Assembly (NCBI GenBank): GCA_040758355.1
Contig: JBFLWF010000024.1
Location: forward strand, 1 to 35,557
Direction: 5' to 3'
DNA from: Nitrospirota bacterium
Lineage (GTDB): Bacteria; Nitrospirota; Thermodesulfovibrionia; Thermodesulfovibrionales; Dissulfurispiraceae
DNA length: 35,557 bases
Shown: positions 10,399 through 22,324 of the stretch, piece after piece
How positions within the stretch are numbered: the first letter of the stretch is position 1
Layout of the letters: every line of letters begins with the position of its first letter
The notes under the pieces: model-generated
Seen by the model: the letters and a program-made list of their open reading frames with translations, nothing else
Told to the model about the DNA's origin: nothing
Database searches by the model: none
Position numbers and translations under genes: made by a program

Positions 10399-11712
10399 TT
10401 ATCTGTCCAGAACCTCTGATTTAACTATAGGAAGATAAATCTTAAATATGGTACCTTTTGCAGGTTCGCTGTAGACATTTATATAACCGTTGTGCTGCTT
10501 TATTATTCCATAAGACACTGCAAGGCCGAGGCCGGTACCCTTGCCTAATTCCTTTGTTGTAAAGAACGGCTCAAAGATCCTATCTATTGTCCTATTGTCC
10601 ATACCCATCCCTGTATCGGAAACCGAAATGAGTGCGTATTCTCCATGCTCTACATGATCATTCGTTTTTATATATTCGCTGCCTAATTGCACAAGCCCTG
10701 TTTCGATAGCTAAGACTCCTCCACGTGGCATTGCATCCCGTGCATTGGTTGCGAGGTTCATCAATACCTGCTCTATCTGGCCGCTGTCCGCCATTACGGT
10801 CAGATCGTCTTCTGAAAGTATTGTTTTAAGGTGAATATCTTCTCCTATAAGTCTTGCAAGAAGGTTCTCCAGCCTGCTTATGATTTCATTGAGGTTTACC
10901 GGCTTAGGATTTATTATCTGCTTCCTGCTGAAGGCAAGGAGCTGCCGGGTCAGGCTGGCTGCCTTTTCTGCAGAAGCAAGTATCTGCTCCACATCCTGTA
11001 TCATAGGATTATCCTCATTCATGCCCATCTTCATAAGGCTCCCGTAACCAATTATCGCAGTCAGTATATTATTAAAGTCATGAGCGATGCCTCCGGTGAG
11101 CTGTCCTATAGCCTCCATCTTCTGTGCCTGCCGCAGTTGTTCTTCAAGACTCTTGCGTTCGGTTATATTTCTTACGACCTCTATTCCTGCGATGATCTTT
11201 CCTGTTGAATCCCTTAAAGGCGAAGCAGTAACCTCAACTATCGTTCTATTATCCGCACTTTTCCTCTCGGCAGTATGAATCCTGCCATCCTTTAAAGACA
11301 TCTCCACAGGACATCCCTCACAAACATTATCCCTGCCCTCATATGCCATATAACAGTAATCTCCGACATGTTCACCGATAATATTTTTATGGACCTGATT
11401 TTGATACAAAACCTTAAAACTTGTATCCTGAATGCTGATGCCGTCTCCAATGGCTGCAATTATCGCCTCTGACCTTATCTTTTCATCCAGCAAGGCTGTT
11501 GAAGCCTGACTCCTCTCGATGTCATAGCGGCGGATCATGTAGTAAAGCATCAGCGCGGTAACTGCAATGAACAACCATCCCTTGAAGGTCTGCAGTTTGG
11601 TGAGCGTTAAGGTGTCTTCAACTATTATGGAAAGCAGATTGTCCGAAAATAGTATCCACAGTCCGCCTATGAAGGCATAGATTATAGCGATTTTCAGAGG
11701 AGACAGTCTCAT
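10399..11712 (-). CDS. Membrane PAS-domain sensor histidine kinase
   Basis: Two N-terminal TMs (WILFSD...KGWLFI), [41 protein letters not shown]. Confidence 0.9.
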
Positions 11713-11936
11713 TCTTCCATGGCTTCTGCAATCTCTTTTAAAAGATTGAGGGCATCTTTTGCAGCATCTTCGTCCACCTTCTGGATTGCAAAGCCTGCAT
11801 GGACAAGGACGTAGTCACCTATCTTTGCATCTTCAGGAAGAAGCAGAAGGCTTATCTCTTTTCGTGCTCCGTAAACATCTACAGTGGCGAGGAGATTATT
11901 TATTTCGACAATTCTTGATGGGACAGCAAGACACAT
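11709..11936 (-). CDS. hypC: Hydrogenase assembly chaperone HypC/HupF
   Basis: MCLAVP N-terminus (ATG at 11936), GDYVLVHAGFAI. Confidence 0.94.
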   Translation of the reverse strand: MCLAVPSRIVEINNLLATVDVYGARKEISLLLLPEDAKIGDYVLVHAGFAIQKVDEDAAKDALNLLKEIAEAMEE

Positions 11937-12397
11937 TTTACATTCCACTCCTTCAGCTTTCCGATAACCGCATCTATCAATGTCTCTATTTTCCCTTTAA
12001 TCTCACCTGTCATGTCAAGGCCGACATCGAGGGATTGAGGTTGTATCCCGATAAGGCATATTTCTGACGGAGATATATCCATCAGTTTTGCGGCAAAAAG
12101 GACATCCGAAAGATTTATATGATGGACAGAGAGTTTTGAGTTGAGGACGGATGGGATATCGTCATTTTCGATCATCCCGATATGGCCGGGCTCTCTTCCA
12201 AAATCAACTGCATCAATAATCAGGACTTTATCGCGTCCTTCAAATATTGGCAGAAGATCGAGGCCCATGGTTCCACCATCAATTATCTCCACATCGGGAG
12301 AAAAGGTATACCTTTGTTTTATGGTGTTTGCTGCATGAACCCCGACGCCCTCGTCCCTCAAAAGGATATTACCAAGACCAATAAGTGCTATATTCAA
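11900..12397 (-). CDS. Hydrogenase maturation endopeptidase (HyaD/HybD family)
   Basis: GLGNILLRDEGVGVH, IDGGTMGL, IIDAV, SVHH motifs. Confidence 0.92.
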   Translation of the reverse strand: MNIALIGLGNILLRDEGVGVHAANTIKQRYTFSPDVEIIDGGTMGLDLLPIFEGRDKVLIIDAVDFGREPGHIGMIENDDIPSVLNSKLSVHHINLSDVLFAAKLMDISPSEICLIGIQPQSLDVGLDMTGEIKGKIETLIDAVIGKLKEWNVKCVLLSHQELSK

Positions 12398-12525: not shown

Positions 12526-13176
12526 TTATTCTTCCTCCACTGTCTTATACCCGCTGAATATGGAGCTCATAACACCGCTCCTCTCTGCCCTGTCCAGCAG
12601 CCATCCTATATAAACATGGGCAATGGAAAAGGCGATTATCAGCCACATTACGAGGTGGTGATAGAGCCTTAAAGTCTGAGCACTGAACAGCGACAGCATC
12701 CAGCCACCCATAAGCTTCCAGAAAAAGCCAACATGGCTCTGTGAGTAAAGGGCAAATCCAGTAAGAATCTCCGCAATGAACAGGATGAATAATCCGAGAT
12801 ACACATAAGTGGCGCAAGCAGTGTGCCCCACCGCCTTAGGCGGCTCCTTTTTCAAAAACAGATAGAACTTTGTTATTTCGATTAACCCCTTAAACTTGCC
12901 TGCACTGAAGGGATTAAAGACCCTCCAGCTTGCATACTTATTCCCCGCCAGCGACCAGTATATCCTTATCAGAAAGCTCACTGCAAAAAGATACGCAGCA
13001 ACAAAATGTATGAACCTCATCCATCCCATTATGTACTGGTCAGTGGAGACGGCATGGATAAATGGATTCCCGATGTAATATCCTGTGATTGACAGAGAGG
13101 CTATACTGAGAACATTTATCCAGTGGGTCAGCCTTACAGGAAACTCCCAGACATAAACCCTCTTTAACATGGCCAC
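12526..13176 (-). CDS. Ni/Fe-hydrogenase b-type cytochrome subunit (HyaC-like)
   Basis: VYVWEFPVRLTHW, RFIHF, RIYW, LYHHLVMW...AHVY, SSIFSGYK. Confidence 0.93.
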   Translation of the reverse strand: MAMLKRVYVWEFPVRLTHWINVLSIASLSITGYYIGNPFIHAVSTDQYIMGWMRFIHFVAAYLFAVSFLIRIYWSLAGNKYASWRVFNPFSAGKFKGLIEITKFYLFLKKEPPKAVGHTACATYVYLGLFILFIAEILTGFALYSQSHVGFFWKLMGGWMLSLFSAQTLRLYHHLVMWLIIAFSIAHVYIGWLLDRAERSGVMSSIFSGYKTVEEE

Positions 13177-13180
13177 CCCC

Positions 13181-14890
13181 TTAAATAACTTTGATTTTTG
13201 TCACTTCTCTGCCTGCCGCATCAACCACATGAACAGCACACGCCATGCACGGGTCAAAGGAATGAACGGTCCTCAGTATCTCAACCGGCTTATTAGGGTC
13301 CGCAACAGGCGTGCCTATCAGTGATGCCTCATAAGGCCCTTTCTGGCCTTTTGCATCCCTCGGCGAGCCGTTCCATGTACTCGGCACAACGCACTGGTAA
13401 TTTGCGATCTTTCCGTCTTTGATTAATACCCAGTGTCCGAGGGCGCCTCTCGGCGCTTCATGGAAGCCATATCCCCTGGCTTCTTTGGGCCATGAAGACG
13501 GATCCCATTTGTCTCCATTATGTATGCGGTAATCCCCTTTCTTCATATTTGCAGTAAGCTGGTCGAGCCATGCAGACATCATCTCTGCCGTAATTAGTGT
13601 CTCGATACCCCTTGCAGCAACACGTCCGAGGGTCGAGAATAACGCCTCAGCGCCTACTCCCAGCTTTTTGAGTACGCTGTCCACAACCTCTTTTACCCTC
13701 TTGTGTCCGGATGCATAGGCAACAAGCATCCTCGCAAGTGGTCCGACTTCCATGGGCATATCCTCGTATCTCGGCGCCTTAAGCCAGCTATATTTTTTGT
13801 TTGTGTCGAGAAACTCGTAAGGGGGCTTTGGTCCCGTGTATTTAAAACTTGTTTCTCCTTCCCATGGGTGCTTTGCCTTTGCATCTCCCTCTTTGTATTC
13901 ATACCATGAATGGGTCACATACTCCATAATCTTTGTGTGGTCAACAGGATGGACCTTGCTTAAATCCTTGTTCTTTATAATTCCCCTCGGAAGCCACAGA
14001 TTTTTAGTATCGATCGCATTATCATTAGGGAATTCGCCACAGGCAAGGAAGTTCCCGACACCGCCGCCGTAATTTGCCCACTCTTTATAGAATGAGGCAA
14101 CAGCCAACAGATCAGGAATATATACATTCTCGACAAACTCAAGGGCCTTCTTTGCCAGCCCTGACATGAATGCAATGCTGTCTGCGTTTAAGGCATTCTG
14201 GCTGTTTGGGTCAATGGGTATGGACATGCCGCCGACAAGGTATGTCTGTGCATGGGGATTCTTTGCACCCAGCAGTGCCTGAATCTTTATCACATCCCTC
14301 TGCCAGTCAAGGGCCTCAAGATAATGGGCAACTGCCATGAGATTTGCCTCAGGCGGGAGTTTATATGCAGGATGCCCCCAGTAAGCATTGGCAAATGGGC
14401 CGAGCTGTCCGCTGTCCACAAGGGCCTTTACTTTAGTCTGAATGCCTTTGAAATAGGATGCAGATGACTTGGGCCAATCCGAAATCGACTGTGCAAGCGA
14501 TGATGTCTTTACAGGGTCAGCCTTAATGGCGCTCACAATATCAACCCAGTCAAGGGCGTGCAAGTGATAAAAGTGTATTACATGATCCTGAACATATTGT
14601 ATGCCTGTAATAAGGTTCCTGATTATCCTCGCATTATCCGGTATTACAATCCCCAATGCACTTTCTACCGCTCTCACGGAGCTGGTGGCGTGAACCGTTG
14701 TTCAGACGCCTCATATTCGCTGGGTAAATGCCCATGCATCTCTCGGGTCCCTGCCCTTAAGGATAATCTCTATTCCCCTGAACATGGTGCTGGATGACCA
14801 TGCATCCACCACCTTGCCGCCTTCTACCTGTGCCTCGATCCTCAGATGACCTTCAATCCTCGTAATAGGGTCAATTGCTATTTTTGCCAT
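13181..14890 (-). CDS. Group 1 [NiFe]-hydrogenase large subunit, 569 aa, with two in-frame TGA codons (60 and 63), probably selenocysteine
   Basis: From ATG 14890 (GGAGG RBS upstream): [19 protein letters not shown]...[21 protein letters not shown], continuing in frame into the track ORF 13181-14677. C-terminal motif is DPCMACAVH. Confidence 0.92.
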
Positions 14891-14911: not shown

Positions 14912-15982
14912 TCATTTACTCTCGCCGCTTTCCTTTTTCTTTGCAGAGCTTGCTATAGCGTGTGCTGCCACGCCGGCTGCTGCTGCCGCTGCTATGCCGA
15001 GACCGATCTTATCGGCAGTCGTCTCAACACCAAAGCCGGGAACCTTCGGGAGCCTTCTGTAAAAAGGCGTCATGGTATCCCAGAAATTGGGTGTTGCACA
15101 TCCGATGCATCCATGCCCTGCCTGTACAGGCCAACTCGTCTTTTCATTGTATTTCATCGTCGGACAATTCTGGTAAGCTGCCGGGCCTTTGCATCCCATT
15201 TCATACAGGCACCACCCGAGCCTGTGGCCCTCGTCACCCCACTGTCTCACAAACTGCCCTGCATCAAAATGGGCGCGTCTTTCGCAATTGTCATGGATCC
15301 TCTTGCCAAAGCCGAAGTATGGACGGCCAAGACCATCGAGTGTTGGCAAAGAGCCGAATGTAAGATAATGGACTATAGTTGCTGTTATATTCTCGACATT
15401 CACAGGACACCCCGGAAGATTGACGACTGTTCCGCCCACAGCCTCTTTTACGCCAACCGCACCTGTGGGATTGGGATTTGCAGCAGGGATGCCTCCATAA
15501 CATGCACACGTTCCAACCGCAATCGTTGCGAGGGCATTGCCGCAAACCTCCTTTGCAATATCAATGGCTGCCTTGCCTCCAACACAGCAGTACACGCCGC
15601 CGTCTTTTAAGGGAATAGAACCCTCCACAACAACAAAGTATTTACCCTTATGATTCTTAACCACGTCCATCAGGGATTTCTCGGCCTGCTTTCCTGCCGC
15701 AGCCATTATGGTTTCATGATAATCCACGGATAAAATATCCAGTACTATCTCCGCAATCGTAGGCTTGTTTGCCCTGAGCAGGGCCTCGGTATCGCCTGCG
15801 CAGTCCTGATATTCAAGCCAGACAAGGTATGGTTTCTGTTTCTTTTCGAGGGCTTCTGCTATCTGCGACACAAAGCTCGATGGCAGTGCCAGTGTTGCTG
15901 CCATGGCAGTGCAGAATTTCATAAAGTCCCTTCTCGATACCCCTCGTCGCGAAAGACCATCAAAAAGATTATCGTCCTGCAT
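14912..15982 (-). CDS. Group 1 [NiFe]-hydrogenase small subunit with Tat signal and C-terminal membrane anchor
   Basis: SRRDFMKFC Tat motif, GTCACYGG, PGCP, HDNC, CLYEMGCKGP, WPVQAGHGCIGC, hydrophobic C-terminal helix. Confidence 0.95.
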   Translation of the reverse strand: MQDDNLFDGLSRRGVSRRDFMKFCTAMAATLALPSSFVSQIAEALEKKQKPYLVWLEYQDCAGDTEALLRANKPTIAEIVLDILSVDYHETIMAAAGKQAEKSLMDVVKNHKGKYFVVVEGSIPLKDGGVYCCVGGKAAIDIAKEVCGNALATIAVGTCACYGGIPAANPNPTGAVGVKEAVGGTVVNLPGCPVNVENITATIVHYLTFGSLPTLDGLGRPYFGFGKRIHDNCERRAHFDAGQFVRQWGDEGHRLGWCLYEMGCKGPAAYQNCPTMKYNEKTSWPVQAGHGCIGCATPNFWDTMTPFYRRLPKVPGFGVETTADKIGLGIAAAAAAGVAAHAIASSAKKKESGESK

Positions 15983-16132: not shown

Positions 16133-16978
16133 ATGGACATTATCCCGGAACCTCAATGGGAAAGACTAATCGAGAAACTAATAAGACATAAGGGCACTGC
16201 CATGTTAATCGGTGCCACTGATTCAGGCAAATCCACCCTCGCAAAATACCTGATAAAAAGGCTGGCATCGCAAAATATCACGGTCTCACTCGTTGACTCC
16301 GATATTGGCCAGTCATCCCTTGGCCTGCCTGGAACAATAAGCATGAAGACCTTCCGCAATCAAAAAGATGTTGAAGATTTCAGGTTTGAGAGGATGTTTT
16401 TCGTAGGTTCAACTAATCCTGCAACAAAATTCCATCTCATGATCCATGGGACAGAGAGGATGGTGAGAATATGCAAAAAGAGGTCTGAAATCGTAATCAT
16501 AGACACAACAGGCCTTATTTCGGGCGGACTTGGGAAGGCATTAAAAATTAGCAAAATAAAGGCTATAAAACCGGAACATATAATTGCAGTCCATCGGAAT
16601 GATGAACTTGAGCATATATTAAATTTGATTGAAAACATACCTATTTATCGCATCAAGGCATCACGCATGGCAAAAGTCAGGAGCAGGGAATACCGTATCA
16701 GATACAGAAAGAAAAAGTTTGCCGATTATTTCGATAAAACAAAAATTTCTGAATTTTTATTGAATGCAAGAGACGCAGGGTTCTTTTATAACAATAAACC
16801 CTTCAGGCTCAAAGACAGGGATTTTGAGGAAGGCGCAATAATCGGCCTTAATCATGGTGAGGATACAATGGCCTTAGGGATTATCACCGAAATAGCAGAA
16901 AATTCCATTATTTTCAGGTCGCCGATAAAATCACTAAAGGGTATTAACAGAGTGGTGTTTGGGGATATTGTCATCTGA
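16133..16978 (+). CDS. Clp1/Nol9/Grc3-like polynucleotide 5'-hydroxyl kinase
   Basis: Walker A GATDSGKST, VDSDIGQSSLGLPG (DxDxGQ), IIDTTG, Arg-rich lid SREYRIRYR. Confidence 0.82.
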   Translation: MDIIPEPQWERLIEKLIRHKGTAMLIGATDSGKSTLAKYLIKRLASQNITVSLVDSDIGQSSLGLPGTISMKTFRNQKDVEDFRFERMFFVGSTNPATKFHLMIHGTERMVRICKKRSEIVIIDTTGLISGGLGKALKISKIKAIKPEHIIAVHRNDELEHILNLIENIPIYRIKASRMAKVRSREYRIRYRKKKFADYFDKTKISEFLLNARDAGFFYNNKPFRLKDRDFEEGAIIGLNHGEDTMALGIITEIAENSIIFRSPIKSLKGINRVVFGDIVI

Positions 16979-16985
16979 CATCATA

Positions 16986-18947
16986 CTACCTATCGAGCAC
17001 CTCCCTCACCTTTCTGAGGAGAACATTAGGAGAAACAGGCTTTGAAATAAATTCGAACTCTTTTTCATTAATACCTTTCAGGCTTAAGATGTCTCCTGTA
17101 TAGCCGCTCAGGAACATGACTTTAATATCTGGCGATATCTTCTTTATCTCATCATATGCCTCTTTGCCGCCCTTTTCGGGCATTATCACATCGAGTATGA
17201 CAAGTCGTATGAGGTCTTTATTCTCTATGAACCTGTTTACTGCCTCTTCTCCATTTTCCACTGCTATGACATTGTAGCCAAACTTTTCAAGCACTGCCTT
17301 TGTGAGTTTCCTCAATCCCGGGTCATCTTCTGCCACGAGTATGGTTTCTGTTCCTCCTCTTACCGGTACTACCTCGGATGGCTGTCTTTCGAATATCTCC
17401 GTTTTAATCAGCGGCAGGTATACCTTGAATGTCGTACCCATATCTGGCTCGCTGTAGACATTTATATAGCCGTTGTGCTGTTTGACTATTCCATAAACCA
17501 CTGAAAGTCCGAGTCCTGTACCTTTGCCGAGCTCCTTTGTGGTAAAAAACGGTTCAAATATCCTCTCCCTTGTCTTTTCATCCATTCCGATGCCTGTGTC
17601 TGTTCCGCTGACAAGGGCATACCTTCCAGGCTCTCCATAGCCGTGTTTTTTTACAAACTCGCTGTCTATCTCTACAGGTTCGGTAGCTATTGTCAATACC
17701 CCTCCTTCTGGCATTGCATCCCTTGCGTTTGTTGCGAGGTTGATCAATATCTGGCCTATCTGACTGCTGTCTGCCATTATCGTCATGTCCTTTTCATATA
17801 GTATGAATTTAAGTTTGATGTCTTCACGTATGAGTCTTAACAGCAGTTTTTCGATATTCCTTATACTGTCATTGATGTTTACAGGTTTTATATCAAGCAC
17901 CTGTTTTCTGCTGAATGCAAGGAGCTGGTGGGTTATCATTGCTGCTCTCTCTGCTGCATCGAGTATCTGCTCTACGTGGGACATCAGAGGGCTGTCTTTG
18001 TCCATATCCATCTTTAAAAGACTTCCAAAACCCATTATTGCATTGAGCATATTGTTAAAGTCATGGGCAATGCCGCCGGCAAGCTGACCAATGGCCTCCA
18101 TCTTTGATGCCTGGCGAAGCTGGATTTCGAGTTTCGCTTTCTCTTCCTCTGCCTTTTTGTGCTCGGTTATGTTGCGCACAACGGCGACTACGTAGCTCTC
18201 ATTCCCGGCAGTAACAACCCGAGTACTGACTTCGACAGGAAAGTGGCTGCCGTCCTTGCGCAGGGCCTCGAATTCGAAGAGGTTCTGCCCTTTGGCACGA
18301 AGTTCCTGAACGTGCGCCTGCCAGGCGGGAATGTCTCGGATTTGTGACTGGATGTCCACTACCCTGCGCTGCAACAGTTCGTCGCGCGTGTAACCAAGAT
18401 CGCGACAAGCCGCCTGGTTGACGTCCAAGAAGCGGCCAGTGGCAGGCTCCACGATGTAGATGCTGTCGATGGACTGATCGAGCAATTCGCGAAAGAGCCG
18501 AAGCTGGGCCTCCGCCTGCTTGCGCTCGGTGATGTCTCGAAGGAATGTAAATAACATTCCCTCGTCACCTTTAATGTAGTTGACGCTTACTTCTATATCA
18601 ATAATCCTGCCGTCCCTGTGTCTGTGGCGGGTCTCAAACCGATCCGAGCCGGTTTCCATTAGTTTCCTTATGCGGGCAGCTGTTTCCTCAGGACTTTCCA
18701 CAGCCTCGATATCCTGAACGCGCATCTTGAGAAGCTCATCCCTGCTGTAACCTATCATATGGCAATAGGCATCGTTGACATCAAGAAAGCGCCCCTCTGT
18801 ATCCACAAGCAAAAAGCCGTCCATGGATGTGCGAATTATAGTCTTGTACTGCTCCTCCACGAGTGTCCTTTCCTCAGCGGCCTGTTTCAGCACTGCAATC
18901 TCCCTGCGAAGTGCCTCGATCTGATTCATTGTCTTTTCATCCATCAT
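16986..18947 (-). CDS. PAS-PAS hybrid histidine kinase / receiver
   Basis: Two PAS domains, [27 protein letters not shown]-terminal REC (VAEDD, ILDVIMP, ISKP). Confidence 0.93.
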   Translation of the reverse strand: MMDEKTMNQIEALRREIAVLKQAAEERTLVEEQYKTIIRTSMDGFLLVDTEGRFLDVNDAYCHMIGYSRDELLKMRVQDIEAVESPEETAARIRKLMETGSDRFETRHRHRDGRIIDIEVSVNYIKGDEGMLFTFLRDITERKQAEAQLRLFRELLDQSIDSIYIVEPATGRFLDVNQAACRDLGYTRDELLQRRVVDIQSQIRDIPAWQAHVQELRAKGQNLFEFEALRKDGSHFPVEVSTRVVTAGNESYVVAVVRNITEHKKAEEEKAKLEIQLRQASKMEAIGQLAGGIAHDFNNMLNAIMGFGSLLKMDMDKDSPLMSHVEQILDAAERAAMITHQLLAFSRKQVLDIKPVNINDSIRNIEKLLLRLIREDIKLKFILYEKDMTIMADSSQIGQILINLATNARDAMPEGGVLTIATEPVEIDSEFVKKHGYGEPGRYALVSGTDTGIGMDEKTRERIFEPFFTTKELGKGTGLGLSVVYGIVKQHNGYINVYSEPDMGTTFKVYLPLIKTEIFERQPSEVVPVRGGTETILVAEDDPGLRKLTKAVLEKFGYNVIAVENGEEAVNRFIENKDLIRLVILDVIMPEKGGKEAYDEIKKISPDIKVMFLSGYTGDILSLKGINEKEFEFISKPVSPNVLLRKVREVLDR

Positions 18948-19933: not shown

Positions 19934-22324
19934 TTACAACACTCCAGCCTTTATCCTTTCCCTTACAATATACGCCTGTCCGAGGGATATGCCTGCGTCA
20001 TTGCAGGGAACCTTCTCATTGGTATGGACATTGAATCCGAGGGCTGAAAGCTGACTAACCGTGCCTTCCAGAAGATATTCGTTCTGGAAAACGCCGCCGC
20101 TTAGTGCGACATTTTTTATCCCGTATTTCTTGCTTATGCGATTGACAGCTTCTGTTATTACGTTGATCATTGTATTATGGAATTTGGCAGCAATGAGACC
20201 TTTGTCCTCCTTGAGTTTTACATCTTCAATTATCTGCAAAATCATCTTCGAAAAATCCACAATTATCGGTGAATGAGTAGATGGGTGAATGGGTGAATGG
20301 GCATTCATGTCTGAAATTTCAAAAGGATATGCTTCCTGCAAATTCGAATTTCGAATTTCGAATTTCGAATTTTGTATAATGTTTTCAAGTGCTATTGCAG
20401 CCTCGCCTTCAAAGGTATTTTCATCGCATATCCCTGCAATTGCAGATACTGCATCAAACAGCCTGCCTGCGCCTGACGAGAGAGGAGAAAATTGTTTGTT
20501 GCCGAGAAGCTTTAAGATGTTTTCAATTTTGTCTTTTCCGTACTTTTCAAGAAAACCTATAAAGTCGAGCCAATCCCAAACACTCCTGACTGCTGACTGC
20601 TGACTGCTGACTGCTTTTGCAATATAACTTATCGCTGTTCTCCAGCACTCCTTTATAGCCCTATCGCCGCCGGGCAGCGGAATGTATTTAAAATGGGCAG
20701 CCCTCTCAAACCCCTTTAAATCACAGATAAGGAATTCTCCACCCCAGAGATTTTTATCCGTGCCGTATCCTGTACCGTCAAGGGCAACCCCTATGACCTT
20801 ATCCTTCAAGCCTTTTTCTGCCATAACAGACGCTATATGCGCATAGTGATGCTGAATGCCTATCTTCTCAACTTCTGCCTTCTGTCCTAATACCCACTGC
20901 GTGGATAAATAATTGGGATGCAGGTCATAGGCAATGGCAACGGGATTTGCCCTGTAAACCTGTTTAAGATTATTCAGGGTTTCCTCAAAAAAAATCAGTG
21001 TCTCAAGATTTTCCATATCACCGATATGCTGGCTTACAATGGCATAACTACCTCTTGTGATTGTAAATGTGTTTTTAATATCAGCGCCACAACCAAAAAC
21101 ATCAGGGCCGTCATCATTCAGTTGAATCGGCTCAGGCACATAACCCCTCGCCCTTCTTATAAACTGGCGAGGTTTAATCACTGAATCATCCACCCTCATG
21201 AAAATATCCCTGTTATGCAGGAGAAAGGCATCTGCAATATCTGAGAGCTTTGATACCGCCTCGTCATTGCTTATAACTATCGGCTCCTCTGACAGGTTGC
21301 CGCTTGTCATAACTAAAGCAGAAAAATGAAAGGTTATAGGCGATAGGCAATGGGCAATGGGATAATGAAACAAAAGATAATGTAAAGGTGTATAGGGAAG
21401 CATAAAACCAAGATATTTGTTATTCGGAGCAATTTCGTCAGGCAGTTCCTTGACCTTTAGCCTTTGACCCTTGACCCTTTTCTTTAAAAGCACTATCGGC
21501 CTGCGTCTATCTGCAAGCAGTTTTTCCTCTTCATCAGAAACCTCGCAGAATTGTCTGACGGCTTCCGTATCAGGAGACATGAGGGCAAAAGGTTTATTGC
21601 TGCGTCTCTTCTTCTCCCTTAATCTCCTAACAGCATCTTCATTCTCAGCATCGCAGCAGAGATGAAAACCTCCGAGGCCTTTAATTGCAATAATCGCTCC
21701 CTGCTTTAATAATTCTATCGCTGCCTCTATCGGGTTCTGGCTGACGGCTGATGGCTGATGGCTGATGGCTAAAGTCAATTTCGGCCCGCATTCATGACAT
21801 GCATTGGGCTGCGCATGGAATCTGCGATTAAGAGGATTATTGTATTCCGAAAGGCATTGAGGACACATATCGAATACTGACATTGTTGTGTTGGGTCTAT
21901 CATATGGAACTCGCTGCGTTATAGAATATCGCGGCCCGCAGTTTGTGCAATTTATGAATGGATAAAGATGGCGTCTGTCAGATGGGTCGAGCAGTTCTTT
22001 CAGGCAGTCATCGCAAATGGAAATATCCGTCGAGATAAGCGTGAATCTCCCGGCATCAATGCTCTCAACAATTATGAAATCCTCATAGCCATTAAGAGGC
22101 AGCTCCTCTGTCTTAATGCTGTCTATTCTGGCAATCGGAGGGCATTTATTCTGGATGGATTGAAGAAATTCATTAAGGGATTCCCCTTCAGCCTCGATGA
22201 TGACCCCATCGGATGTGTTTTTTACATAACCTTTGAGATTAGAATTTTTTGCGAGGTTATAAATAAAAGGCCTGAAGCCCACACCCTGGACAATGCCTTT
22301 TATCGATATGAGTATGCGATTCAT
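19934..22324 (-). CDS. hypF: Hydrogenase maturation carbamoyltransferase HypF
   Basis: GIVQGVGFRPF acylphosphatase domain, CDDC/CTNCGPR and CPQC/CHECGP Zn fingers, QHHYAH, DGTGYG, NDAGISLGQA. Confidence 0.96.
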   Translation of the reverse strand: MNRILISIKGIVQGVGFRPFIYNLAKNSNLKGYVKNTSDGVIIEAEGESLNEFLQSIQNKCPPIARIDSIKTEELPLNGYEDFIIVESIDAGRFTLISTDISICDDCLKELLDPSDRRHLYPFINCTNCGPRYSITQRVPYDRPNTTMSVFDMCPQCLSEYNNPLNRRFHAQPNACHECGPKLTLAISHQPSAVSQNPIEAAIELLKQGAIIAIKGLGGFHLCCDAENEDAVRRLREKKRRSNKPFALMSPDTEAVRQFCEVSDEEEKLLADRRRPIVLLKKRVKGQRLKVKELPDEIAPNNKYLGFMLPYTPLHYLLFHYPIAHCLSPITFHFSALVMTSGNLSEEPIVISNDEAVSKLSDIADAFLLHNRDIFMRVDDSVIKPRQFIRRARGYVPEPIQLNDDGPDVFGCGADIKNTFTITRGSYAIVSQHIGDMENLETLIFFEETLNNLKQVYRANPVAIAYDLHPNYLSTQWVLGQKAEVEKIGIQHHYAHIASVMAEKGLKDKVIGVALDGTGYGTDKNLWGGEFLICDLKGFERAAHFKYIPLPGGDRAIKECWRTAISYIAKAVSSQQSAVRSVWDWLDFIGFLEKYGKDKIENILKLLGNKQFSPLSSGAGRLFDAVSAIAGICDENTFEGEAAIALENIIQNSKFEIRNSNLQEAYPFEISDMNAHSPIHPSTHSPIIVDFSKMILQIIEDVKLKEDKGLIAAKFHNTMINVITEAVNRISKKYGIKNVALSGGVFQNEYLLEGTVSQLSALGFNVHTNEKVPCNDAGISLGQAYIVRERIKAGVL

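Follow-up and report, generated by a model that had tools for sequence, protein, structure and literature searches.

Which residues bind nickel in a hydrogenase whose gene has a UGA codon at each of the two N-terminal cysteine positions? This question is raised by a [NiFe] hydrogenase large subunit gene on contig JBFLWF010000024.1 of a Nitrospirota bacterium (family Dissulfurispiraceae, GenBank assembly GCA_040758355.1). Positions 1 to 35,557 of this contig were analysed; this whole stretch of 35,557 nucleotides is referred to as the window, and coordinates are those of the window. [NiFeSe] hydrogenases, which contain selenocysteine (Sec), are prized as O2-resistant, H2-evolving catalysts. To our knowledge, all that has been learned about them derives from enzymes in which a single, terminal Sec stands in the C-terminal motif. 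A first reading of the window, made from its letters without database searches (the sequence-only reading), proposed a double-Sec active site with one terminal and one bridging selenolate or, as a fallback, a special tRNA that inserts Cys at UGA. The analysis presented here points, with a probability of about 0.78, to a double-selenocysteine Group 1 uptake hydrogenase with Sec predicted at both UGA codons.

Two UGA codons at nickel ligand positions

The minus strand from 14720 to 14688 reads CAG CGA ATA TGA GGC GTC TGA ACA ACG GTT CAC. With TGA translated as U, the gene is a single open frame from an ATG at 14890, with a GGAGG box 5' of it, to a TAA stop at 13181, and its product of 569 residues carries U60 and U63 in the motif R-I-U-G-V-U-T-T-V-H. 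The product matches PF00374 over the complete profile (positions 1-508 of 508; residues 38-554; E 6e-245, 814 bits). Its best match among solved structures is the membrane-bound enzyme of Allochromatium vinosum (3myr_B, E 2e-227), where U60 and U63 align onto both Cys residues of RICGVCT; E. coli Hyd-1 and Hyd-2 match as well (E 1e-174 to 1e-185). All four Ni ligand positions (RxCGxCxxxH and DPCxxCxxH) are present and aligned, and only the N-terminal pair is encoded by UGA. The relatives likewise have DPCxxCxxH as their C-terminal motif. The position of codon 60 is that of a terminal (non-bridging) Ni ligand, following the role given in the available text of PMC13582414, and the position of codon 63 is that of the ligand bridging Ni and Fe. 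A family search found no second group 1 large subunit in the genome. The sequence-only reading had placed TGA at exactly codons 60 and 63 of RxCGxC and had described the remaining gene and operon as intact with an ordinary DPCMAC motif. Both statements were confirmed, the former by the minus-strand reading and the 3myr_B alignment and the latter by translation and family searches.

Authenticity of the UGA codons

The region was compared with Logan contigs of the sequencing runs X1, X2, X4 and X20. In run X2, a hot-spring metagenome of another study, a contig with a depth of ~1967 covers the full 801-nt stretch with 20 differences, none of them at 14640-14863. Run X4, also from another study, contributes a contig over 14300-14816; it has 15 differences, and those closest to the site are at 14654 and 14750. 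Neither contig differs from the window at 14702-14713, and so the accuracy of the sequence at the site, which the sequence-only reading had wished to see verified, is supported by two independent runs that retain both TGAs. The contig of run X1 is identical to the window and possibly represents the source sample itself. RNA run X20 yielded a single 312-nt contig, 93% alike, over 14331-14638; since it stops short of the UGAs and comes from a relative, it is uninformative on expression here. TGA terminates 380 of the 1263 open frames of at least 300 codons in the genome, and the codon is therefore not reassigned genome-wide. The UGA finding is real, and it is neither an error nor the mark of a pseudogene.

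Standard open reading frame (ORF) calling divides the gene into a 59-residue ORF (14890-14711) and a 498-residue ORF starting at GTG 14677, in agreement with the earlier expectation that automated ORF calling truncates the protein. This GTG (14675-14677, minus strand) is a Val codon inside the apical loop of a predicted hairpin (hairpin 2, see below), which explains the uniform 498-residue database entries. Indeed, 56 of the best 120 homologues in a protein collection are forms of ~498 residues, and 60 are full-length Cys types; the database versions lack the first 71 residues. The Group 1 hydrogenase with UGA at both positions (UxxU) is widespread in Nitrospirota and systematically mis-annotated. 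Surveys of hydrogen metabolism and of selenoproteomes probably miscount it, because it is stored without its N-terminus.

Distribution and evolution of the UGA codons

Among 41 genomes of the same order (source genome included; homologue threshold E up to 1e-50), a homologue was found in 35, and exactly two TGAs are present in 20 of these genes. The two TGAs stand at the same codons in relatives down to ~70% identity, and 19 of the 20 relatives' genes with both TGAs have no further stops. For comparison of the ligand codons, 110 related loci were assembled, all of them distinct stretches: the 30 best loci of relatives and 80 named loci from a species-representative genome collection. The relatives' loci comprise 20 UxxU, 3 CxxU and 7 CxxC, the named loci 19 UxxU, 6 CxxU and 55 CxxC, which gives 39 UxxU, 9 CxxU and 62 CxxC overall. 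At codon 60, TGA occurs in 39 of the 110 loci and TGC or TGT in the other 71; at codon 63, TGA occurs in 48 (39 UxxU and 9 CxxU). The alternation of TGA with TGC/TGT that had been suggested as a check on homologues was thus found at exactly these codons. The argument that two chance nonsense mutations at these ligands would be very unlikely is borne out by the recurrence of the same two TGAs in 20/30 relatives' loci and 19/80 named loci.

The named UxxU loci are mainly from Nitrospirota (Thermodesulfovibrio-like metagenome-assembled genomes), with further ones in Chloroflexota (5), in Methylomirabilota (1) and at one locus labelled Thermodesulfobacteriota. In a survey of 401 evenly drawn genomes of the phylum, the pattern U-G-V-U-T-T-V-H was found in 53 genomes and in 39 of 162 genera, and the reversed control pattern in 0. 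A quick maximum-likelihood tree of 106 rows, from which the short rows L027, L059, L061 and L080 were omitted and in which the two ligand columns were masked, requires the UxxU label to change at least 7 times along well-supported branches. Chloroflexota UxxU clades adjoin CxxU or CxxC sisters, and one CxxC gene (L030) is nested within the Nitrospirota UxxU genes. The protein collection also contains a Cys-type protein that is 92% identical to the protein of the window. Together, these findings indicate that Sec and Cys states switch often and over short evolutionary distances. Frequent switching has likewise been reported for Group 4 hydrogenases in the available text of PMC13582414.

No residue of the aligned proteins tracks the UxxU state. 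Tyr99 was the sole column with at least 90% presence in UxxU and at most 25% in CxxC, and it was rejected as a UxxU marker because Tyr is also found in Cys-type Chloroflexota. The suggestion in the sequence-only reading that N-terminal Sec may already be known from Geobacter relatives found no support in this sample: all 32 of 32 rows of the Geobacter/Desulfuromonadales clade, a few of them labelled Myxococcota, Pseudomonadota or unnamed, are CxxC. Geobacter proteomics papers mention selenocysteine only for formate dehydrogenase.

Selenocysteine machinery and a selC*-type tRNA

The source genome (99% complete, 93 contigs) harbours one tRNA-Sec(UCA) (69 bits, 8-bp acceptor stem, G73), selA (638 bits), a single copy of selB (385 bits), a Sec-type selD with one in-frame TGA and a Sec-type formate dehydrogenase gene (fdhA). 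The search for Sec machinery proposed in the sequence-only reading thus recovered selA, selB, tRNA-Sec(UCA) and selD. A second match to RF01852 over the cut-off (C17:36259-36344) was rejected, as it is an ordinary tRNA-Ser(UGA). Among the 41 genomes of the order, selA is present in 39 and selB in 40, one copy each, and both are found in each of the 20 UxxU genomes. Since selA and selB occur in almost all genomes of the order, their presence is consistent with reading UGA as Sec but does not discriminate.

A further tRNA gene of the genome lies on a contig outside the window. Its anticodon loop is CUGCAAA (GCA), and it has discriminator U73, an encoded CCA, an 8/5 fold (8-bp acceptor stem, 5-bp T stem) and a long, branched variable arm of ~47 nt (23-59 nt in relatives). 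ARAGORN, which misses long forms, does not call it. In 16 homologues 98% of the cells are paired, with compensatory changes at 10 pairs. Judged by these structural features, the gene corresponds to the published selC* tRNA-Cys, Cys identity being predicted. According to the available texts of PMC5389517 and PMC7609411, selC* tRNA-Cys has been reported from Thermodesulfovibrio and Nitrospirae, always with a complete Sec system. Its described traits are U73, a GCA or UCA anticodon, an 8-bp acceptor stem and a long variable arm (PMC5389517, as available); the 8/5 fold found here differs from the bulged 8/4 fold described in the same source for some deltaproteobacteria. BLAST found the selC*-type tRNA in 16 of the 41 genomes. 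A covariance model, which cross-matches true tRNA-Sec, added one more, with a line at 73 bits that was set by the authors in the gap between 73.7 and 62.6 bits. The resulting 17 genomes comprise 10 of the 20 with UxxU and 7 of the 21 without. As half of the UxxU genomes (10/20) lack this tRNA, the UxxU state is independent of it; genome completeness is 93% or higher for most of those in which it was not found.

In one relative (G019:C52, L146:1500-1599), a further copy of the selC*-type tRNA gene lies 2 kb from the intact one; it is probably decayed, and only 5 of its 8 acceptor pairs can form.

Read-through and a candidate recoding signal

Codons are numbered below relative to the first UGA, and figures for UxxU genes refer to n=39 loci unless fewer are given. 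Between the two UGAs, codons +1 and +2 specify Gly and Val in 39/39 UxxU genes but are variable at the third position (entropy 1.30 and 1.37 bits), and T-T-V-H follows in frame after the second UGA. Invariant amino acids with variable third positions, together with TTVH, indicate translation across both UGAs and not a 59-residue peptide followed by a restart. Synonymous variation in UxxU genes is almost absent between codons -1 and +13 and is at background level again from +14. The Ile codon at -1 is almost always AUA in these genes (counts in Table 1), also in 5/6 UxxU genes from other phyla, and Cys-type genes with Ile at this position mostly use AUC. ACG is found at codon +5 in 37/39 UxxU, 5/9 CxxU and 25/59 CxxC genes, and GTT at +6 in 34/39, 4/9 and 22/60, respectively. 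Codon +9 is ACC in 27/27 and codon +10 is AGC in 20/20 UxxU genes; at +12, GTG is used in 38/39 UxxU and 9/9 CxxU genes and for 13/25 Val codons in CxxC genes. The G+C content at third codon positions is equal between UxxU and CxxU (0.56 and 0.57). The sites that are frozen chiefly in UxxU genes suggest that the first UGA may have an additional requirement.

The 57 nt of the window that were folded form two adjacent hairpins (-17.1 kcal/mol). Hairpin 1 (loop AACG), at nt +4 to +27 from the first UGA, holds the second UGA in its stem and may help to decode the first; covariation is uninformative for it, because its stem sequence is fixed by conserved amino acids. Hairpin 2 (loop CGUGA), 16-35 nt past the second UGA, is the best-supported candidate for a selenocysteine insertion sequence (SECIS). 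Compensatory changes occur at 3 of its 7 pairs, namely AU to UA or GC in 10 sequences, GC to CG in 4 and CG to UA in 2, some of them via amino-acid replacement (Ala to Gly or Ser at codon +14). In 8 sequences a shifted register (GCC UCG ... GCG) was seen by eye, with the hairpin at the same place. For the whole named structure 85.6% of the cells are paired, compared with 27-47% with slid partners; this structure was named by the authors after RNAalifold had given 3 pairs, a choice that leans towards the favoured reading. The G and U of the hairpin 2 loop are invariant in the 39 UxxU sequences. The start of this loop is also found in 7/9 CxxU loci, and a CGUGC loop in only 2/62 CxxC loci. As stated in the available text of PMC13582414, a SECIS has G at the first or second loop position, and C-G-U-G-A has it at the second. 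GUC-loop hairpins follow the UGAs of fdhA and selD in the same genome, at +23 and +21, respectively. An Rfam scan of 14550-14800 gave chance matches only (E above 6), and the element has no Rfam family.

Relation to known hydrogenases

The canonical [NiFeSe] hydrogenases (Desulfomicrobium baculatum, 1CC1, and D. vulgaris Hildenborough HysAB) belong to HydDB group 1a. They share with the present enzyme the Group 1 type and, as predicted here, the periplasmic location, a selenolate Ni ligand and the bacterial SelB/SECIS route. They differ in having one Sec in a C-terminal DPUxxC motif, where the present protein has DPCMAC with Cys codons, and they match only residues 176-567 (E ~1e-100). A HysA-type identity was rejected on the basis of this motif and of NCBIfam NF045518, which scored 428.5 bits against a cut-off of 780. 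A Group 4 identity was also rejected, since the best matches are group 1 and NuoD-type models cover only residues 13-107 with ~33 bits.

The enzyme belongs to Group 1 in all features tested and, on sequence relationships, probably to HydDB group 1f. A 75%-identical relative is labelled 'hydrogenase, group If' by its source, and relatives at 68-75% identity are found in Geobacteraceae, Desulfuromonadales, Acidobacteriota, Roseiflexus and Anaerolineae. In the tree, the protein groups with sequences of Geobacter, Acidobacteriota and Roseiflexus. Hya of Geobacter sulfurreducens and Acidobacterium enzymes have been placed in group 1f, a class described as poorly studied and possibly mixed in the available texts of PMC6896113 and PMC5900883. 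The gene order with cytochrome b is shared with G. sulfurreducens Hya, but the uniform CxxC of the Geobacter/Desulfuromonadales clade is unlike the UxxU found here.

The closest parallel to the double UGA is in Group 4. A study of 2026 describes CXXU, UXXC and UXXU motifs in 47 Group 4 sequences and terms UXXC and UXXU previously unrecognised; Groups 1-3 were outside its data set (PMC13582414, as available). The Group 4 UXXU genes resemble the present ones in their mosaic of Cys and Sec types, in a SECIS-like hairpin ~50 nt downstream with a conserved loop G, and in co-occurrence with selC*-type tRNAs, as far as the available text of PMC13582414 shows. They differ in encoding multisubunit, energy-converting enzymes, whereas the present gene encodes an uptake enzyme of Group 1 that is exported by the twin-arginine (Tat) route and linked to cytochrome b. 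The frequency in the lineage also differs, with 53/401 genomes here and ~0.2% given for Group 4 (PMC13582414, available part). According to the same partly available source, Sec variants of Groups 1 and 3 carry a C-terminal UXXC motif, except for two Group 1 sequences and one Group 3 sequence with N-terminal CXXU published in 2011 (PMC13582414). In the available part of a review of prokaryotic selenoproteins of 2026, UxxC is the only form listed for hydrogenase large subunits (PMC13188914). In E. coli Hyd-1 and Hyd-2, each of the four ligand Cys residues has been replaced singly by Sec and the resulting variants studied (PMC11212049, as available); according to the available text of PMC13582414, these variants retain activity. 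They are single laboratory substitutions, N-terminal positions included, and the present case would be a natural double substitution. The Group 1 CXXU sequences of 2011 have Sec at the bridging N-terminal position, as predicted here, but in the present gene the terminal ligand is encoded by UGA too; the CxxU state also occurs within the present family, at 9/110 loci. These CXXU sequences reportedly come from Baltazar et al. 2011. A Group 1 UXXU hydrogenase was not found in print, in a search that left out most subscription journals and the supplements of PMC13582414.

If the double-Sec reading is true, a natural two-selenolate Group 1 enzyme, in which one selenolate bridges Ni and Fe, would make it possible to examine directly the effect of selenium at ligand positions for which only engineered single variants have so far been available. 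The UxxU form is frequent in an uncultured and widespread lineage, as the phylum survey shows, and close copies are present in two hot-spring runs. Moreover, two UGAs that are 9 nt apart offer a compact natural system to study how SelB handles consecutive recoding events.

Proposed mechanism and alternative explanations

In the favoured explanation, this is a working gene whose product would be the catalytic subunit of a group 1 [NiFe] uptake hydrogenase that is located in the periplasm, exported by the Tat route and anchored by cytochrome b. SelB and Sec-tRNA(UCA) would read both UGAs as selenocysteine under the direction of hairpin 2, the stem-loop with the CGUGA loop that follows closely within the coding sequence. 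In the mature site, nickel would then be bound terminally by Sec60, Sec63 would bridge Ni and Fe, and Cys548 and Cys551 would come from the C-terminal motif. The two selenolates would probably tune O2 handling and catalytic bias, leaving the reaction unchanged. Sec at both codons, the service of one hairpin to both and the catalytic effect of two selenolates are steps that we infer. The contigs, the Sec machinery and the codon alternation support the double-Sec proposal, with one terminal and one bridging selenolate, that the sequence-only reading had made. Several observations weigh against it. The genome contains a potentially competing selC*-type tRNA-Cys, and no bridging selenolate has been characterised in a natural enzyme in any of the literature examined. 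Over 7 phylogenetically independent pairs, the frozen sites specific to UxxU do not reach significance (median p: ACG 0.06, ATA 0.25, GTT 0.6). The fold of the window is only moderately better than those of shuffled sequences (z -2.09, 6/200 shuffles as good), and RNAalifold on the 39 UxxU sequences alone gave only 3 pairs. Finally, hairpin 2 has its loop G at +37 from the first UGA and +28 from the second, a longer spacing than in fdhA and selD; a single hairpin for both codons is therefore no more than a proposal.

An extension of the double-Sec reading that is considered unlikely holds that the signal has two parts, hairpin 2 being the shared SECIS and the AUA at -1 and the ACG at +5 (loop G), with hairpin 1, enabling recoding of the codon 9 nt further upstream, and that the active site is a facultative Se/S site. 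In this extension, in the half of the genomes with the selC*-type tRNA, SelB would insert Cys under selenium scarcity, yielding S/S, S/Se or Se/Se enzymes according to supply. Among the rival explanations, it is unlikely that one or both UGAs are read as Cys, always or under selenium scarcity, by the selC*-type tRNA-Cys with SelB at the same hairpin, which would give an ordinary or mixed S/Se active site. The presence of this tRNA, with a cloverleaf conserved in its 16 homologues, speaks for Cys insertion, as does the report that selC*-type tRNAs are enriched in genomes with Group 4 UXXU genes and that both anticodon types mediate UGA recoding (PMC13582414, available part). Yet the GCA anticodon pairs with UGC and UGU and not with UGA, and the tRNA is present in only half of the UxxU genomes and in a third (7/21) of the others. 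Each genome has a single selB, and the 4-kb contig with the tRNA gene carries neither cysS* nor selB* next to it. Moreover, with Cys as the product TGC would serve cost-free, yet UGA was retained over long divergence. A candidate for the special tRNA of the earlier fallback is present in the genome, but its anticodon is GCA and not UCA, and only 10 of the 20 UxxU genomes contain it.

Clearly less probable is that only the second UGA is a true Sec codon, as in the CxxU state, and that the first is passed by near-cognate read-through or inefficient decoding. CxxU is the more widely scattered state and often stands beside UxxU in the tree, hairpin 2 is better positioned for the second UGA, and the AUA and ACG codons frozen mainly in UxxU genes hint at an additional requirement for the first. 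On the other hand, the Ni ligand position accepts only Cys or Sec, the first UGA is kept in 39 loci and 53 genomes belonging to several separate clades, and a single SECIS for both codons has been proposed in Group 4 UXXU genes (PMC13582414, as available). That the gene is a pseudogene or split gene, or that the TGAs are sequencing or assembly errors, is extremely improbable. The 59- and 498-residue ORFs of standard calling and the many stored forms of ~498 residues would fit such a view, but independent contigs agree at the site, the same two TGAs recur in relatives down to ~70% identity, further stops are absent from 19 of 20 relatives' genes, purifying selection acts on the remaining gene and operon, and the truncated form would lack two Ni ligands.

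The hydrogenase operon and its surroundings

The partner genes of the large subunit (small subunit, cytochrome b, protease and HypC) are intact and on the same strand, and TIGR00391, TIGR01409, TIGR02125 and TIGR00140 all score over their own cut-offs. The hypF gene lies 5 kb away. Coordinates are collected in Table 1.

Table 1 Positions of the large subunit gene, its UGA codons and predicted signals, the operon genes and the selC*-type tRNA
Feature	Position	Strand	Basis
[NiFe] hydrogenase large subunit gene, 569 codons and stop, two in-frame UGA	13181..14890	-	TGA=U translation, Pfam, 3myr_B
First in-frame UGA, codon 60, first N-terminal Ni ligand	14711..14713	-	TGA=U translation
Second in-frame UGA, codon 63, second N-terminal ligand	14702..14704	-	TGA=U translation
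C-terminal Ni-binding motif DPCMACAVH, residues 546-554, ordinary Cys codons, followed by 15-residue extension	13229..13255	-	TGA=U translation
Codon -1, AUA (Ile) before first UGA	14714..14716	-	ATA in 38/39 UxxU, 1/6 CxxU, 5/22 CxxC (Ile codons)
Hairpin 1, second UGA in stem	14687..14710	-	Predicted in own fold and most relatives
Hairpin 2, candidate SECIS, loop at 14678-14674	14667..14686	-	Own fold and alignment of 39 UxxU
Hydrogenase small subunit, twin-arginine signal SRRDFMK	14912..15982	-	PF14720, PF01058, TIGR00391 E 1e-137, TIGR01409 Tat signal
b-type cytochrome membrane anchor subunit	12526..13176	-	PF01292; TIGR02125 165 bits, cut-off 121.5
HyaD/HybD-type maturation endopeptidase, start codon uncertain	11900..12397	-	PF01750; TIGR00140 155.6 bits, cut-off 151.8
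HypC/HupF maturation chaperone	11709..11948	-	PF01455 E 6e-27
HypF carbamoyltransferase, hydrogenase maturation	19934..22324	-	PF22521, PF07503, PF17788, PF00708
selC*-type tRNA-Cys(GCA), outside window	G000:C71:192-316	-	RF01852 39.7 bits (196-316), below cut-off

In the small subunit, the proximal Fe-S motif is C-A-G-D (residues 61-64; 15791-15802, minus strand), compared with C-T-G-C in D. vulgaris Miyazaki, so that Asp replaces the second Cys ligand. Asp or Asn at this position is common in both Sec and Cys types (CAGD, CAGN, CTGD); the search pattern used for this comparison missed 39/110 loci. Divergent from the operon lies a gene for a 281-residue P-loop protein with a Clp1 polynucleotide-kinase-like domain (16133-16978, plus strand; PF16575, E 4e-40). 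PAS-domain histidine kinases are encoded on both sides of the operon, one directly after hypC (10399-11712, minus strand) and one, a hybrid with a receiver domain, between the operon and hypF (16986-18947, minus strand). These kinases may be regulators of the operon.

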